Assembly (NCBI GenBank): GCA_013239625.1
Contig: MU053645.1
Location: forward strand, 124,001-188,000
From: Lama guanicoe
Taxonomy: Eukaryota
Direction of reading: 5' to 3'
DNA: 64,000 bases
The position numbers and the translations under genes are program-made. Of this stretch, positions 1,795 to 49,894 are shown one piece after another (the stretch's first letter is position 1; each line of letters starts with the position of its first letter). The notes beneath the pieces were generated by a model. The model saw nothing but the letters and a program-made list of their open reading frames with translations, searched no databases and was not told the origin of the DNA.

Positions 1795-2015
1795 GATTCA
1801 TTTTAAACAAACGTTTATTTTTAACTTGAACAAACGTTGTCAGATATATATGAAGAAAGACAAAAACCAAGTATCAGTGGATGTTACTTTTTGGGTGATG
1901 AACTCCTGGACAAGCTAGTGTTGATGAAATTTCCCATGCACTACTGAATTTCAAAACATCTCAAATCCGTGAAGAACACTGTTTCTCTTTCATCCATGTC
2001 TTTCTATGCTTTAAA
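1795..2015 (-). other. Candidate non-coding exon on the - strand (3' exon of the CT47-like unit or internal UTR exon)
   Basis: Strong minus-strand acceptor ttcttttattatttcttcctacag ending at 2016, and minus-strand AATAAA at 1819-1814. Confidence 0.4.
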
Positions 2016-2093
2016 CTGTAGGAAGAAATAATAAAAGAACATTTGAACATAAGTAGCATACTCCAGTGGCTTTCTAAATCTAAGAAAAGTCAA

Positions 2094-2114
2094 ATATATA
2101 TATATATATATATA
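2094..2114. repeat. (TA)n microsatellite
   Basis: atatatatatatatatatata run. Confidence 0.9.
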
Positions 2115-2653
2115 GTCTCAACGAGAGAAAACACAATTTTCCTCTTGTTACCCAGGACCTTGGGTACCAGGGTGTTTGTACATTTTTTGATGTCTTCAAT
2201 CATCTGATCACACCAATCTCATCTCCTACTTGCCAAACACCAAAAATGCTTGCTATTTTTTTTTTTGGCAGGTAGGAGGACACCATTCAGGGATGTAAAT
2301 AAGTCTTTCCACCTTAAAGGCCTGTGCTCTTTCCATAAACCATAATCTCTTAACCTCCTAGACCCTCAGTGCCCATTATCTGTAAAAGGAGAAAGAAAAA
2401 AAGAGGGAAAGAAAAAGATAGATAAGATGTAAGTTAAATTAACAATTCAATGATAAGCAAAATCTTAATATGACTAATTTTCTTCTGTGGGTTCATGGAT
2501 TGCATTGATGATGGCAGCTCTCCTATCAAACAGAAGTTGGTAGAAGGCAGCGTACTTTTTCTCGAGATCAAAAAGGTCTTTACAGAATTGGGCTTCTAAC
2601 TTGTGCATATTGTACCTGAGGGCTTTTTAGAGCTTTGACCTGCTACTTAATCG

Positions 2654-3514
2654 TTAGAGGAAAGCGCTGAGCACTGCCTGCCTGTGGGTTGGTCGCCCCA
2701 ACAAGGGATGCAAGGGCCTGAGGACTGGGCCACCACTTACCAGCTTCAGTCCACCTGGTTTCACAGCCCCCAGCTCCCAGAATACGTGTGTATCAGCAAG
2801 GGATTTGCTCTCTTGGACCTTGGGTTCCTCGGGTTCCTCTACCTTCTGACATGCAGCCCCCTCTGTACGTTTCTCTGGCACTTGCCAGGAGGTTCCCTCT
2901 GTCAGGTACTCACCCTCCCAGTTCTCTGCTTCCTCTGGCAGGTCCTCACCCTCCCAAGGTACAGGTCCCTCTCCCAGATCCTTGGGCTCTTGGGAACCAC
3001 ACTTGACCACAATGTGGCCTGCATGGGGTCCAACCAGGACATGGTCATTATAATGGATACGGCATAAAAGGGAACGGACCAGATACTGGAACAGGGATCA
3101 AAATCCTGCAACGGGTAACTCATGGGCCCCTATGAGGACTTCTGCACCCTCCTCCCGTACCTGCTTGTTGCAGTCTTCCCCTTCATCCTCATCTTCCTCC
3201 TCCTCAATGACGTAGTCCTGTTCCTCTTTCTCCTCCTCCTGCCCCTCCTCCATGCCTTCCTCTTGCTCTGCTGAGCAGGTGTCTCTGTCCTCCTCAACTG
3301 TGGTCTGGGCAGCCTCCTGACTACCCTTCTTTGCCTCCTGAAGGGCTATGGCGACTGCCTGGGAAACCAGAAAGGCCGCAACCAACACGATTTCATCTGA
3401 CTCTTCTGCGGGGGTAACCACTGGGACCCCAGCGAGTCCAGGGTCATGGTCTGCCTCACTATCAGCTCTGTCCTGACCAGCTTGAGTCAGGTCTTGCTTC
3501 TCCATGACAGACAT
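2654..3514 (-). pseudogene. CT47 (cancer/testis antigen 47)-like acidic protein frame with one internal TGA (3100-3098); pseudogene, null allele or sequence error
   Basis: ORFs 3098..3514 and 2654..3010 share a frame. The gap between them translates ELPVAGF*SLFQYLVRSLLCRIHYNDHVLVGPHAGHIVV, which resembles the CT47 core as I recall it ([28 protein letters not shown]...VGPHA). The flanks are Glu-rich and the N-terminus is MS..(K/D)..TQ..Q. Donor CTG|gtaagt at 2740 probably ends the true exon. Confidence 0.75.
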
Positions 3515-3530
3515 GGCAGGAGGGACTCAC

Positions 3531-3925
3531 CAGTCTGTACCTGGACCTAAACTGCAATCCTGTGCAGTAAAGATGGCGACCACCAAGCTGACTGCCACTG
3601 AGCAAATGCCGTTGGCAGCGGGGCCTGCTGGGAGGTGGTGCGGGCGATAGAGTAGATGGCCACAGACAGGATAACAACTTGCGAAAGTGTCTGTGGAGGC
3701 CCCGAGACAAGAAGGGCAGGGGGTGGCCGGAGGAGTGGCCCAGCCCACTGAGACTGCGCCTGAGGTAACAGTGGACAAGGTGGAAAATGGCGGGCAGATG
3801 ACGCGAGGCGAGCTTGAAGGGTCAACAAAGGACTGCTTCCGTCATCACTGAGCTCTTAGCTCATTTGCTGAGAAGCAAGGATTGACATGCCTGGCGTCCA
3901 ATGAGTGATCAAGGTCCATTGGGTC
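3531..3925 (-). promoter_or_regulatory. Small GC/CpG-rich promoter and first-exon region
   Basis: Clearest CpG-enriched patch of the window. YY1-type motifs AAGATGGCG (3570-3578) and AAAATGGCGG (3784-3793), TGACG half-CRE (3799-3803), overlapping ETS/CRE CTTCCGTCA (3836-3844) and CCAAT (3898-3902). Minus-strand donor CTG|gtgagt at 3530. Confidence 0.65.
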
Positions 3926-4659
3926 TAAATTGCTCAGAATCTCCCTTATCTTTGAGACCTTAGAAGTTCTTACGCTTTAAGCCCAAGCCAGTCAACAAGT
4001 CCTGTTCATTTAATTTCATCATTGTCAGCAAAACTATAGTGTTCCAATATGACTGCACCCTGCAGCATAGGAACTGTAATCCTCTCCCCCCATTTTCATC
4101 TAAGGACACCTCATGTCAGTATGGACAGAGTCTTAAAAAATTGTTTATCTCAGATCTCAGCAGTGGCAAAAGTCTCCAAGAAGAGAGAGAAAATATTTTA
4201 GACTTACTAGTGTTATTAAAACTGCTTAATAAAGAACTTATAAAGTTAAAATGAAATCAGTCAGAACAGAGAGTTTAAGAAGTGTCCAAAAAAAAGGAGC
4301 TTTAAAGTGTTTAATAAATGCTGCCAAAAACACATCAAGCCTCTAAAGAATAAACAGAAAGGGGAACACTTATTTAGAGGCAACCATGAAAAGCCAAAGG
4401 GTAGCTTTTCAATGATGATCTGAGTAAACTAGGAGTTTCTGTTGTGTTCTGACCTACTAAATCAAGAAATCAAGTGTAAAAAAAAATTCTTAAAATGATG
4501 GATAGGTCACTTTTTATATTAAAGTATTTTGTAACTGAAAAATATCTTAGAAAAAGAGACATAGGAAATGAATTATGAAATATATATCACAAAGTAACAT
4601 TGATAAACCACTTTTATCACTTTACTCCAGTTTCAATACATTTTAAATTTAAAAATTGT

Positions 4660-25330: not shown

Positions 25331-26219
25331 GACTCAATGGATCTCTTCTTTCATATTACACATGTCCATGGTCATTGGATTCCACAGCTGACTCCCTTAC
25401 TCCACTGCCTTGTACTCTTCCAGGCTCAGAGAATCTTACATCATATTTTCTGGCTTTTGCTCTAATAATTCAGAAATAACATAAATGAATGTAGGAATAA
25501 TACTGTAAGATGTCTTGCAACTTAGAAATGACTCTTTAGATGATACTGATGGTGAGAGAAATCTGAAATACAAAAAGTTATACTTTTATCTTCCTGTTGT
25601 TTAGAAACACTCCTGTGACTTCCGTGTATTGCATGAATGCTTATGATCTTGTACATAGCTCCATAAACTACCACCATTCCATTCCAACTAAATGTATCTT
25701 GTGGAAATTATTCTCCTTTTGTCTTTTATCCAATGAAAAGCACAGGTGTTCTCCCATCTCATTTCTTATAGATTTTATCTTAAGAAAAATGCCAAATTAA
25801 AAAATATCTAAAATTCTGATCTACAAAAGATAATGTAAGCAAAGAGAGTGGTAGTTTTATCTAAGCATTCTTCCCAAGGCTGCCTCTGGTTCAAATAAAA
25901 AGTAATTCAATTTATAAATTCAGCCCAGTTTATCCCCAAAGTTTTCATATGTTGCTATTACATCTGAACAACAGTCTTTGCCATTATTTCTGTGGCCCCA
26001 GCAAGCCACCTATTTCCTGCTCTTATTAGATGTGCCATCAATTTTTCAGGGGAGAAAAGCCTCCCCACAGGCCCTGGCGAACACACCATTGAATGTTTTA
26101 TATTGTTTTACTAATTATGATGGGTGATTATTGTGTGTTTCTGATTCAGAGTTTTCATCCAGCTAAGATCCCCCAATGGTTTTCTCACCTCATCTCTTAT
26201 AGATTACCTTCCTTCCAAA

Positions 26220-26838
26220 ATGCCACTGTTGCTCTATCTGGTTCTCTTGGTACTTGGGATTCATTATGCACCACCTAACATCTCTGAAGGCACAGTAACT
26301 TCCTGCCATTCCCCTCAACAAAATGCCACTCTCTATAAGATGTCATCCATCAATGCTGACTTTGCATTCAACCTGTACCGGAGGTTCACTGTGGAGACCC
26401 CAGATCAGAACATCTTCTTTTCCCCTGTAAGCATTTCTGCAGCTTTGGCCACGCTCTCCCTTGGGGCCTGCTCCAGTACCCAAACCAAAATCCTGGAAGG
26501 CTTGGGTTTCAATCTCACAGACACCCCAGCAGCAGAGATCCAGCAGGGCTTCCAGCACCTGATCTGTTCACTGAATTTTCCAAAGGAGGAGCTGGAATTA
26601 CGGATGGGAAATGCCATCTTCATTGAGAAGCAGTTGAAACCACTGGCAAAGTTTTTGGATGATGTCAAGAACCTCTATGAGACTGAAGTCTTTTCTACCG
26701 ACTTTTCCAATGTTTCTGCAGCCCAGCAGGAGATCAATAGTCATGTGGAGGAGCAAACCAAAGGGGAAATTGTGGGCCTCATTCAAGAACTCAAACCAAA
26801 CACCATTATGGTCCTGGTGAACTATATTCACTTTAAAG
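26220..26838 (+). CDS. SERPINA7: Thyroxine-binding globulin, first coding exon (signal peptide to ...LVNYIHFK); exon starts at 26203
   Basis: The translation MPLLLYLVLLVLG...NATLYKMSSINADFAFNLYRRFTVETPDQNIFFSPVSIS...LVNYIHFK is TBG. Acceptor ctcttatag ends at 26202, donor AAAG|gtaagg starts at 26839, 619 coding nt (phase 1). Confidence 0.98.
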
Positions 26839-27144
26839 GTAAGGTTCTAAGATATCCATTTCTAGTTCAGAATTCCAATAATTTGGTGGAGCACTGAAGG
26901 GAGCTCATGATGTCTTCTCACTGGCATCAGTAGGTGTCCCTCACACCACAGTGATGTGCTCCACCGGACATAGCTGTATGTATTTTTGGATCTTCCAGGG
27001 AGGCCACATAGCTCTATGGATGAGCCCAAGAAATTTCTAGGGAGAGGGCACTTTCAGAGAGGTGAGTTACAGTGGTATTAAAATCCTTCTCATATCTAGC
27101 TAGAGAATCATGGTTTCCAAAAGATTTGGTGAGGTGGGACAAGC

Positions 27145-44852: not shown

Positions 44853-45916
44853 AGATTCCACATATGACCAATTTCATACGGTATTTTTCTTTCTTTTTCT
44901 GGCTCACTTCACTTAGAATGACATTCTCCAGGAACATCCATGTTGCTACAAAGAGCGTTATGTTGTCGGTTTTTATGGGTGAATAGTATTCCATTGTATA
45001 AATATACCACTCTTCTTTATCCAGTCATCTGTTGATGGAAATTAAGGCTATTTACATGTCTTGGCTATTGTAAATAGTGCTGCTATGAACATTGGGGTGC
45101 AGGTGTCATCCTGAAGTAGGGTTCCTTCTGGATATATGCCCAGGAGCGGGATTCCTGGGTCATACGGTAAGTCTAGTCCTAGTCTTTTGAGGAACCTCCA
45201 TACTGTTTTCCACAGTGGCTGCACCAAATTGCATTCCCACCAGCAGTGTAGGAGGGTTCCCCTTTCTCCACAGCCTCTCCAGCATTTGTCATTTGTGGAT
45301 TTTTGAATGATGGCCATTCTGACTGGTGTGAGGTGATACCTCATTGTAGTTTTGATTTGCATTTCTCTGATAATTAGTGATATTGAGCATTTTTTCATGT
45401 GCCTATTGATCATTTGTATGTCTTCCTTGGAGAATTGCTTGTTTAGGTCTTTTGCCCATTTTTGGGTGGAGTTGTTTGTTTCTTTCTTTTTAAGTCGTGT
45501 GAGCTGCTTATATATTCTGGAGATCAAGCCTTTGTCAGTTTCATTTGCAAAAAATTTCTCCCATTCTGTAGGTTGTCGTTATGTTTTGCTTGTGGTTTCC
45601 TTTGCTGTGCAAAAGCTTGTAAATTTAATTAGGTCGCATTTGTTTATACTTGCTTTTATTTCGATTGCTTGGGTGGACTGCCCTAGAAGAACATTTCTGA
45701 GATGTTCATCAGATAATGTTTTGCCTATATTTTCTTCTAGGAGGATTATTGTATCTTGTCTTATGTTTAAGTCTTTGATCCATTTTGAGTTGATTTTTGT
45801 ATATGGTGTAAGGGAGTGTTCTAGCTTCATTGCTTTACATGCTGCTGTCCAGTTTTCCCAACACCATTTGCTGAAGAGACTGTCTTTATTCCATTGTATA
45901 TTCTTGCCTCCTTTGT

Positions 45917-46401
45917 NNNNNNNNNNNNNNNNNNNNNNNNNNNNNNNNNNNNNNNNNNNNNNNNNNNNNNNNNNNNNNNNNNNNNNNNNNNNNNNNNNNN
46001 NNNNNNNNNNNNNNNNNNNNNNNNNNNNNNNNNNNNNNNNNNNNNNNNNNNNNNNNNNNNNNNNNNNNNNNNNNNNNNNNNNNNNNNNNNNNNNNNNNNN
46101 NNNNNNNNNNNNNNNNNNNNNNNNNNNNNNNNNNNNNNNNNNNNNNNNNNNNNNNNNNNNNNNNNNNNNNNNNNNNNNNNNNNNNNNNNNNNNNNNNNNN
46201 NNNNNNNNNNNNNNNNNNNNNNNNNNNNNNNNNNNNNNNNNNNNNNNNNNNNNNNNNNNNNNNNNNNNNNNNNNNNNNNNNNNNNNNNNNNNNNNNNNNN
46301 NNNNNNNNNNNNNNNNNNNNNNNNNNNNNNNNNNNNNNNNNNNNNNNNNNNNNNNNNNNNNNNNNNNNNNNNNNNNNNNNNNNNNNNNNNNNNNNNNNNN
46401 N
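45917..46401. other. Assembly gap (485 N)
   Basis: Run of N within L1 ORF2. Confidence 1.
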
Positions 46402-49400
46402 TGTGGACCTTTTAGGGTTTTCTATATATAGTAACATGTCGTCAGCTTATAGTGACACTTTTACCTCTTCTTTTCCAGTTTGGATCCCTTTTATTTCTCT
46501 CTTGCCTGATTGCTGTGGCTAGGACTTCCAGGACTATGTTGAATAGGAGTGGTGATAGTGGGCATCCTTGTCTTGTCCCAGATTTTAGTGGGAAGCTTTT
46601 GAGTTTTTCACCATTGAGTACTATGCTGGCTGTAGGCTTGTCATATATAGCTTTTATTATGTTGAGATATGTTCCCTCTATACCCACTTTGGTGAGAGTT
46701 TTCATCATAAATGGGTGTTGAATTTTATCAAATGCTTTTTCTGCATCTATTGAGATGATCATGTGGTTTTTGTCCTTTCTCTTGTTGATGTGATGTATCA
46801 CATTGACTGATTTGTTTATGTTGAACCACCCTTGTGTCCCTGGGATGAACCCCACTTGGTCATGATGTATAATCCTTTTCATGTATTGTTGGACTCCATT
46901 TGCTAATATTTTGGTGAGGGTTTTGGCATCTGTGTTCATCAGTGATATTGGCCTATAATTCTCTTTTTTGGTAGTGTCTTTGCCTGGTTTTGGTATCAGG
47001 GTGATGGTGGCTTCATAGAATGAGTTTTGGAGTAGTCCCTCCTTTTCAATCTTCTGGAAGAGTTTGAGAAGGACTGGTATGAGTTCTTCTTTGTATGTTT
47101 GGTAGAATTCCCTGGTGAAGCCATCTGGTCCTGGACTTTCATTTGTAGGGAGGTTTTTTATTGCTATTTCGATTTCATTTCTAGTGATCGGTTTGTTCAA
47201 GTGGTCAGTTTCTTCTTGATTCAGTCTTGGTGGACAGTGTGTTTCCAGAAACTTGTCCATCTCCTCTAGGTTATCCAGTTTGGTTCCATGTAGTTTTTCA
47301 TATTCTTGTATGATATTCTGTATTTCTATTTTATTTGTTGTAATTTCTCCATTTTCCTTTCTTATTTTGGTAATTTGTGCTCTCTCTTTTTTCTTCTTTG
47401 TGAGTTTGGCCAGAGGTTTGTTGATTTTACTTACTCTCAAAAAACCAGCTTTTGGTTTGATTGATTTTTTTTTCTATTTTTTTTTAATCTCTATTTTATT
47501 TATTTCCTCCCCGATCTTTATAATTTCCTTCCTTCTGCTGACTTTGGGTTTTTTGCTCTTCTTTTTTGAGGAAGCCCTTTATTGCTATAAACTTTCCTCT
47601 TAGTACTGTCTTTGCTGTGTCCCATAAATTTTGTGTGGTTGTGTTTTCATTTTCATTTGTCTCAAGGTATTTTTTAATTTCAATTTTGATTTCATCATTG
47701 ACCCATTGATTTTTAATAGCATGTTGTTTAATCTCCATGCTTTCCTTTTTTTCTCCTTTGTTTCTCTGTTGTTGATTTCTAGTTTCATGACATTGTGGTC
47801 AGTAAAGATGCTTGAGATAATTTCTATCTTCTTAAAATTGTTGAGGCTTCTTTTGTGCCCAAGTACATGATCAATCCTAGAAAATGTTCCATGTGCACTT
47901 GAAAAGAATGTATATCCTATTTTGGGGGGCTGTAATGCTCTGAATATCCACCGAATCTAATTTTTCTAATGTATCATTTAATTTCTTCGTTGCCTTATGT
48001 ATTTTCTGTCTGGAAGATCTGTCTAGTGATGTTAATGTGGTGTTAAAATCTCTGACAATGATTGTATTCCCATCAATTTCCTCTTTTATCTCTGTTAGTA
48101 ATTGTTTTATGTACTTAGGTGCTCCTATATTGGGTGCATATATATTAATGAGTGTAATATCCTCATCTTGTATTATTCCTTTAATCATTATAAAATGTCC
48201 TTCTTTATCTTTCTTTATGGCCTTTGTTTTAAAGTCTATTTTGTCTGAAATCAGTACTGCTACACCTGCTTTTTTGGCTTTTTCATTTGCGTGGAATATC
48301 CTTTTCCATCCTTTCACTCTCAATCTATATGTGTCCTTCTTCCTAAAGTGGGTCTCTTGTATGCAGCATATTGATGGTTCTTGCTTTATTATCCAGTCTG
48401 CCACTCTATGTCTTTTGACTGGAGCATTTAGTCCATTAACATTTACAGTAATTAATGATAGATGTGTGTTTATTGCCATTTTGAACTTATTTTTGCAGTT
48501 GATTTGGTATTTTCTCTTTGTTCCTTTCTTCTTCCTTTTGTGGTTTGGTAATTTTCCTTTGTATTATCTTGGATTTTATTTAGTTTTTGTGACTCACTTG
48601 TAAGTTTTTGGCTTGTGGTTACCCTTTTTTGTAAGTCTATTAACCCATTACTATAACTGTTTGTATTAAACAAATAGTAATATAAGCTCAAACCCATCCT
48701 ACCAAGAACAAAACATTTTAAAAAGAAAAAAACCTCTATATTTTCTTGCTTCCCTCTCCCACACTTAATGATTTAAACAATGTCTTGTTTTACAATTTTG
48801 TGTTTATTCTTTTTGTAATTCATGGCAGTTATCTTCTTTCCAGTTATGAGCTTCTCATTTCTGTAGCATCCTGTTTCTTTTCTATTTAGAGTAGACCTGT
48901 GAATATTTCTTTTAGCATGGGTTTAGTGTTGCTAAACTCTTTTAGTTTTTGCTTGTCTGTGAAATTCTTTATCTCTCCTTGTATTCTAAAGGACAGCCTT
49001 GCTTGATAAAGTATCCTAGGCTGCATCTTTTTTTCATTCAGGGCTTCGAATATATCTTGCCACACACTCCCTTCTGGCCTGTAGTGTTTGTGTAGAGAAA
49101 TCAGCTGAGAGCCTTGTGGGGGGTTCCCTTGTAACTCATTCTTTGTTTTTCTCTTGCTGCTTTTAGGATCATTTCTTTGTCCTTGACTCTGGCCGTCTTG
49201 ATTATGATATGTCTTGGTGTGAGTCTGTTTGGGTTCTTCCTGTTTGGGACCTTCTGAGCTTCCTGTACTTGGATATCTGATTCCTTCTTTAGGTGTGGAA
49301 GTTTTCAGTCATGATTTATTCAAATACCTTTTCCATCCCCTTTGTTCTTTCTTCCCCTTCTGGAATCCTTATTATGCATAGATTTGCACGCTTTATATTA

Positions 49401-49894
49401 TCCCATAGGTCCCTTATGCTATTTTCATTTTTTAAATTTGTTTATCTTGAAGCTGTTCTGATTGGGTGCTTTCTGTTGTCCTGTCTTCTAGGTCACTTAT
49501 TCGTTCCTCTGCATTATCTAGCCTGCTTTGTATCACCTTTAGGTCAGCTCTCATCTCAGCAAATGAGTTTACCAGTTCTACTTGGCTCTTCTTTATAGCT
49601 TCAATTTCATTTTTGACATATTTTATATCTCTAAACACTATCTCTTTTAGTTCCTTCAGTACTTTGATTACTCCTTTTTTGAAATCTTGATCTAGTAGGC
49701 CGTCAATGTCTATTTCATTGATCATTCTTTCAGGAGATTTCTCTTGCTTTCTAAATTGGTAGTGGTTCATCTGCTTCTTCATATTGCTCATATCTCTCTG
49801 GCACTGTGGCTTAAGGAGTATCAGTTATCTATTGTGGCCCTTAAGAAGTTTATTTATTTATCTATCTAAATCCTATACAGGAATAAAACTTAAA

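Follow-up and report, generated by a model that had tools for sequence, protein, structure and literature searches.

The minus-strand frame from 3514 to 2654 raises the question of whether a CT47-like gene was recently disabled by a single stop codon or whether that stop belongs to an older and larger change. Translation of the window (the whole stretch of guanaco DNA that was analysed, 64,000 nucleotides) gave 287 codons in this frame with a single internal stop, a TGA at 3098..3100 on the minus strand (codon 139), in the read-through context LPVAGF-stop-SLFQYLV. An earlier note, made from the letters alone, had joined two separately listed open reading frames into this one frame, and the minus-strand translation confirms the join. 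With the stop read as X, the frame matches the Pfam CT47 family (PF15623) at residues 83–234 (2813..3268, minus strand), with an E value of 4.4e-12 and 47 bits against a gathering cut-off of 27, and the CT47-like family call of that note is borne out. The part after the stop reached 30.4 bits by itself against the same cut-off, and a Pfam scan of the part before the stop alone found no CT47 match. The placement of the locus also stands as first described. It lies beside SERPINA7 (thyroxine-binding globulin), whose first coding exon is at 26145..26897 on the plus strand (E 2.1e-105), head to head with it and about 22.6 kb away, and there is no tandem array within the 64-kb window, which holds one copy. 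In human, a deletion is reported to run from DRP2 to NAP1L4P2, and SERPINA7 is the last OMIM gene that the report lists (PMC10201758); going by that list, a NAP1L-type pseudogene would therefore lie near SERPINA7 in human too. Elsewhere in the window, a run of 485 N bases (45917–46401) lies inside a long element (about 45000–49800, minus strand) that we take to be LINE-1-like from its translated motifs.

A first protein search returned seven matches, including two dolphin proteins with both CT47 and NAP domains. A search with a dolphin CT47+NAP protein then yielded 34 matches, seven of which are at least 600 aa long and carry both Pfam domains. These are proteins of elephant seal, mink, otter, desman and mole, plus two records that cluster with bear and cat proteins. 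Proteins of tamandua (617 aa) and golden mole (571 aa) also align from Met1, and CT47 was not found in the tamandua protein at E 0.01 when it was rescanned with Pfam. The NAP part is complete in all five full-length proteins that were scanned (248–266 bits), and the best PDB match of a full-length homologue is NAP1L1 (E 6.8e-93). The window aligns collinearly with residues 1–388 of the seal protein (642 aa), without any gap as large as an intron, and the NAP helix starts in the same way. In its ancestral form the frame coded for a CT47+NAP1L protein of 570–645 aa, which is intact in carnivores, moles, tamandua and golden mole. Unlike these proteins, which keep the whole NAP domain, the copy in the window has four lesions, is missing about 250 codons and falls on another branch. 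An AlphaFold2 fold of the full-length homologue, made from 12 full-length homologues, had a mean pLDDT of 34 and a pTM of 0.20, with only the long NAP helix above 70; it supports neither a fold search nor conclusions on order, such as the earlier note's description of the segment at the stop as the only ordered one. Two irregularities were seen among the other models. In those of sheep (P0025), yak (P0032) and reindeer (P0033), the tail of one copy is continued by the head or core of another, a hint of tandem copies in ruminants. A pangolin cluster (P0074, with P0176 and P0177) is named 'T-complex protein 11 X-linked protein 2', perhaps from fused models or a neighbouring gene.

Transcription was assessed from X17, the sole RNA run mapped, which is labelled reproductive system (tissue not stated) and comes from a relative about 2% different; the RNA runs X15, X16, X18, X19 and X20, with shares of 0.08–0.18, do not enter the evidence. 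An 804-nt contig of this run, at a depth of 131, lies on 3787–3164 and 2017–1839 with one letter between. The junction 2017/3164 was present in the one RNA run and in none of three DNA runs. It corresponds to a joint from 3161 to 2015 over a GT..AG intron, with the donor CAG/GTACGG at 3161/3160 and an acceptor made of a pyrimidine tract and CAG. Exon 1 of the observed transcript spans 3161..3787 on the minus strand, where 3787 is the contig end and not a mapped start site. Its coding part (3161..3514, minus strand), delimited by the RNA contig and RefSeq comparison, has 118 codons and is the acidic N-terminal head of the CT47–NAP1L family. The start is Kozak-like and clean, with no ATG upstream of it in 3787–3515. 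The intron (2016..3160, minus strand, 1145 nt), identified from the RNA joint and the splice signals, holds the TGA, the CT47 core and a remnant of the NAP domain; absent RNA cover inside it was counted only together with the joint across 3161–2015. The last exon (1814..2015, minus strand; the RNA contig covers 1839–2017) supplies three codons and a stop (2015–2004), followed by the 3' UTR and an AATAAA at 1819–1814. The product is 118 + 3 codons, or 121 aa, with 39 acidic (D+E) and 8 basic residues. The conserved CT47 core, being intronic, is absent from it. A second contig of the same run (2237 nt, depth 67) represents a paralogue that is unspliced into the NAP domain, and it matches the window at 2482–2975 and 3508–3526.

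Five proteins matched exon 1, and the top two were RefSeq models from alpaca (XP_015105239.2) and dromedary (XP_010978330.2), with 1 and 8 differences, respectively, over the 118 residues. Identity to the whole 121-aa product is 99% for alpaca and 93% for dromedary. These records, named 'rho GTPase-activating protein gacV-like' and 'parathymosin-like', are the 121-aa spliced product of this gene; their names appear to be based on composition, and neither record is linked to CT47 or NAP1L. The exon-1 peptide has no Pfam family above cut-off, and its four weak matches, at E up to 1, include neither prothymosin nor parathymosin, which resemble the product in charge only (39 D+E of 121). A search of the ESM Atlas with the 121-aa product gave no usable match. 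Two rhino gene models (P0003 and P0004) leave the genomic frame at the same donor place, and the end peptide of one of them matches a different reading frame of this last exon.

The intron contains four lesions and not one. A frameshift-aware alignment placed three lesions beyond the TGA, and they are the same in six of seven homologue alignments (the seventh, P0012, differs in the anchor motif). On the minus strand, these are a net loss of one base at 2751..2766, whose exact place is uncertain within that range; a premature TAG at 2643..2645, where five of six aligned homologues have Q; and one extra base near 2597 (2595..2600), which restores the original frame. Offsets against the paralogue RNA contig confirm the phase changes at the DNA level. 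The offset shifts by 101 nt at 2751–2766, and 95 letters stand against 94 in the paralogue contig at the second frameshift. The true homologous frame between the frameshifts (2592..2777, minus strand), covering a linker and the start of the NAP helix, was recovered with a profile of full-length homologues (E 2.6e-14) and by tblastn. The last ~32 codons of the 287-codon frame, together with its end stop, are out-of-frame sequence. The earlier note had described one lesion and no frameshift because the two shifts cancel; it also overlooked what is left of the NAP domain and the fact that the stop is spliced out with an intron. The NAP remnant (2477..2626, minus strand) matches profile positions 8–55 of 266 in PF00956 at an E value of 8.9e-10, above cut-off. 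It is broken and intronic and falls far short of a complete NAP domain, but with the NAP1L1 match of the full-length homologue it marks descent from a NAP1L gene. Homology ceases near 2482, beyond which a profile built on 12 full-length proteins found nothing more in the window; the remaining ~250 codons are absent from it. Contigs from all three DNA runs pass through ~2482 as in the window, whereas paralogue contigs there continue into the NAP domain; the loss of the 3' part is therefore real. The piled-up depth at 2482–2582 and 3175–3205 is due to contigs of the paralogue or of repeats, and copy number was not judged from it. All four lesions are intronic, and none falls among the 118 codons of exon 1.

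We propose that the locus represents a second, old copy of a placental gene. One exon of that gene encodes an acidic head of the CT47 type fused to a histone-chaperone domain derived from NAP1L1. The camelid copy would still be transcribed, with the donor after codon 118 spliced to the last exon. The CT47 core and the chaperone part would thereby have become intron and then decayed through the TGA, two frameshifts, the TAG and the 3' loss. This anatomy, an intronised CT47–NAP frame with a short spliced product, is very probably correct. Because the stop of the mRNA frame lies in the last exon, the mRNA should escape nonsense-mediated decay, and a 121-aa protein would presumably be made and kept by selection. 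Prothymosin and parathymosin are the model for unfolded polyanions that bind basic nuclear proteins. By analogy, the 121-aa protein would most likely serve in germ cells as an unfolded polyanion that binds basic nuclear proteins, histones or others. Within the anatomy described, we give a probability of about 0.55 to a functional, acidic and probably unfolded binder of basic nuclear proteins, a role suggested by charge and ancestry.

The main competitor accepts the same anatomy and holds that the locus is a transcribed pseudogene. Its promoter would still be active, its spliced form would merely escape nonsense-mediated decay, and the 121-codon frame would be a leftover. We regard this as possible, though clearly the less likely of the two. 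Exon 1 differs between the window and the RNA run by eight replacement and three silent changes, a neutral-looking ratio (P 0.43–0.63 for at least 3 silent of 11; the 11 are 10 listed differences and the junction letter, and one of the contig's 14 is not listed). The distribution of lesions, 4:0 between intron and exon 1, is not significant alone (P 0.19), and an open frame of 118 codons survives neutrally in 26–46% of simulations at the camelid-scale distance of 0.03, with assumed indel rates. A pseudogene would also suit a peptide that matches neither a Pfam family above cut-off nor the Atlas, the discarding of the conserved CT47 core, and the N-terminal frame of fin whale (P0019), which appears to be broken early. 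Any function could come instead from the paralogue, whose longer contig is present in the same RNA run. Two further relatives (P0079 and P0087) start downstream of the N-terminal frame. Set against these points, four lineages (camelids, rhino and the mammals P0078 and P0132; open frames were found by searching for them) have exon 1 open from a shared Met, and at a distance of 0.1 per lineage neutral survival is 1–8%, again with assumed indel rates. The splice donor shared with the rhino models and the Kozak-like start, with no ATG before it, likewise speak against a mere leftover.

That other isoforms are of importance in the species of the window is improbable. These would be either an unspliced 138-aa product that runs to the TGA or forms spliced from a donor-like site at 2741 or into an acceptor-like site at 2379. 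A dromedary model (P0133; KAB1252780.1) has the unspliced 138-aa form, and minor forms are lost from contigs. The minus strand carries two unused sites that resemble donors (2741 and 3531) and, at 2379, a strong acceptor-like site; minor isoforms are possible. However, X17 contains no RNA contig of this copy over 2018–3163, where the pieces are those of the paralogue. Transcripts spliced downstream of a stop are targets of nonsense-mediated decay, and splicing downstream of the TGA would produce such a target.

An otherwise intact 287-codon CT47 gene, with a recent stop, a segregating null allele or a consensus error, is very unlikely. The frame is indeed open apart from the TGA, and the residues at that column (R 11, Q 7, W 5, G 3, P 1 and S 1 in the 28 homologues with a residue there, among 34 rows) fit a CpG hot spot. 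R, Q and W are the usual CpG products, and such an origin of the TGA is plausible from the alignment. Against this reading, no other letter was found at 3098–3100 in any of three DNA runs (X9, X12 and X13), which represent three organisms and three studies and are three of the 14 runs sharing half or more of the window's words. Each of the three spans 2553–4000 by one contig with five to six other letters. Contigs drop rare variants, and a low-frequency sense allele would escape them; such an allele would leave the ancestral protein unrestored. The 138-aa dromedary model ends exactly at the TGA codon, and the split between Old and New World camels is dated to about 16.3 My ago in the account consulted (PMC12127551). 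Unless a CpG site mutated twice independently, the stop, common to dromedary and the window, therefore dates back at least about 16 My. Neither recent loss nor an error or common segregating allele, the explanations offered in the earlier note, is compatible with these data, and the idea of one private or polymorphic lesion in a 287-codon gene has to be abandoned given the three further lesions, the missing 3' part and the out-of-frame end. The paralogue is also less neglected than had been supposed, as 121-aa RefSeq models exist for both alpaca and dromedary. In itself the TGA is unremarkable, an old lesion within the intron of a gene for which models already exist. At six other positions (2157, 2457, 2825, 3311, 3335 and 3579), all three DNA runs share a letter that differs from the window; these are alleles private to the window or consensus errors, and none of the three in the long frame changes an amino acid. 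A 286-aa protein made by programmed read-through, or with selenocysteine at the TGA, could be suspected from a lone in-frame TGA common to Old and New World camelids but is the least likely reading of all, as the codon is removed by splicing, the frame has no homology past 2751, and C occurs at the TGA column in none of the 28 homologues, which have R, Q, W or G instead.

The proposed second copy appears to be old. A tree of 31 N-terminal regions was built from 34 rows hand-picked from about 170 proteins, leaving out three with fewer than 100 aligned residues. The window clusters with dromedary, rhino and four further records (support 92/89, unstarred). NAP-bearing proteins of camel, whale, ruminants and carnivores lie apart from this group (97/93), and a separate branch (100/99) is made up of the true CT47-like proteins from rhino and sloth. 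In a 14-row tree, support for the window's group is only 60, and the sloth CT47 protein lies beside it. A sister relationship between the window and the camel paralogue (P0034, assigned to camel by its likeness to XP_031302463.1) was rejected at a p-AU of 0.004, and grouping of the window with all cetartiodactyl rows at a p-AU of 0.0002; the clade groups for these tests were named after the first tree had been seen. With sisterhood to the camel paralogue rejected, the sequences date the duplication to before the camelids, and it is probably also older than the split from perissodactyls. Among the proteins examined, none of this lineage extends to an intact NAP domain.

Published accounts describe CT47 as a young gene. 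Its C-terminal part in human has been identified as an out-of-frame NAP1L1 retrocopy, in a primate-specific candidate made mostly of intergenic DNA (Baertsch et al. 2008, PMC2584115). Other sources, in the parts that treat the gene, report CT47 only in human and chimpanzee, as a tandem array at Xq24 with >98% identity (PMC3652184), or call it specific to human, lacking both a known motif and a mouse orthologue, and find that it binds and stabilises PRMT5 (PMC9345867). The human family (CT47A, CT47B1 and CT47C1) shares with the locus an acidic head, the core after it and, from the 2008 description, NAP1L-derived sequence 3' of the core (PMC2584115). It differs in forming the Xq24 array, whereas here the core is intronic and a single copy in the 64-kb window lies beside SERPINA7. 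Among the literature matches listed, in which subscription coverage was thin, no paper states an in-frame placental CT47–NAP1L form, and only the 2008 remark on an out-of-frame retrocopy was found.

Shortened relatives occur in other placentals. The squirrel protein XP_047391246.1, a Trap1a-like protein (tumour rejection antigen P815A-like), matches exon 1 with 40.5% identity over 105 aa (E 6.7e-15) and both ends of the full-length protein (residues 1–70, E 1.3e-7; residues 556–629, E 1.6e-13). Like the copy in the window, it is without the CT47 core and most of the NAP domain, but it keeps the NAP C-terminal tail that is lost here and falls on a separate branch of weak placement. The rhino and sloth CT47-like, squirrel P815A-like and siamang proteins all match the NAP C-terminal tail of the full-length protein. 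The rhino and sloth proteins also match the CT47 core, the squirrel protein the N-terminus, and the siamang protein exon 1 of the window. Seven short relatives (P0123 from squirrel, P0085 from siamang, P0007, P0008, P0018, P0035 and P0050) join the acidic head or the CT47 core straight to this tail, a pattern suggesting that splicing or deletion has taken out the chaperone core repeatedly.

It is likely that CT47 is a shortened descendant of an in-frame CT47–NAP1L histone chaperone of about 600 aa that was present in the placental ancestor. As part of the same reading, this chaperone is intact in Afrotheria, Xenarthra and Laurasiatheria, where it is filed as 'NAP1L1', and CT47, the P815A/Trap1a-like genes and the gene described here would each have lost the chaperone core, either through splicing or through deletion. 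Of the three, the gene at this locus would have gone furthest, keeping only the acidic head. Human CT47 and mouse Trap1a are tentatively linked to the family through the Pfam model and database names. The in-frame union of CT47 and NAP in golden mole, tamandua, moles and carnivores argues for a much older origin and for a germ-line link to histone chaperoning. The locus is a clear case of coding sequence becoming intron, with the decay visible inside it, and it exposes a mis-named placental gene family. If this history is true, CT47 gains both a biochemical ancestry and animal models.
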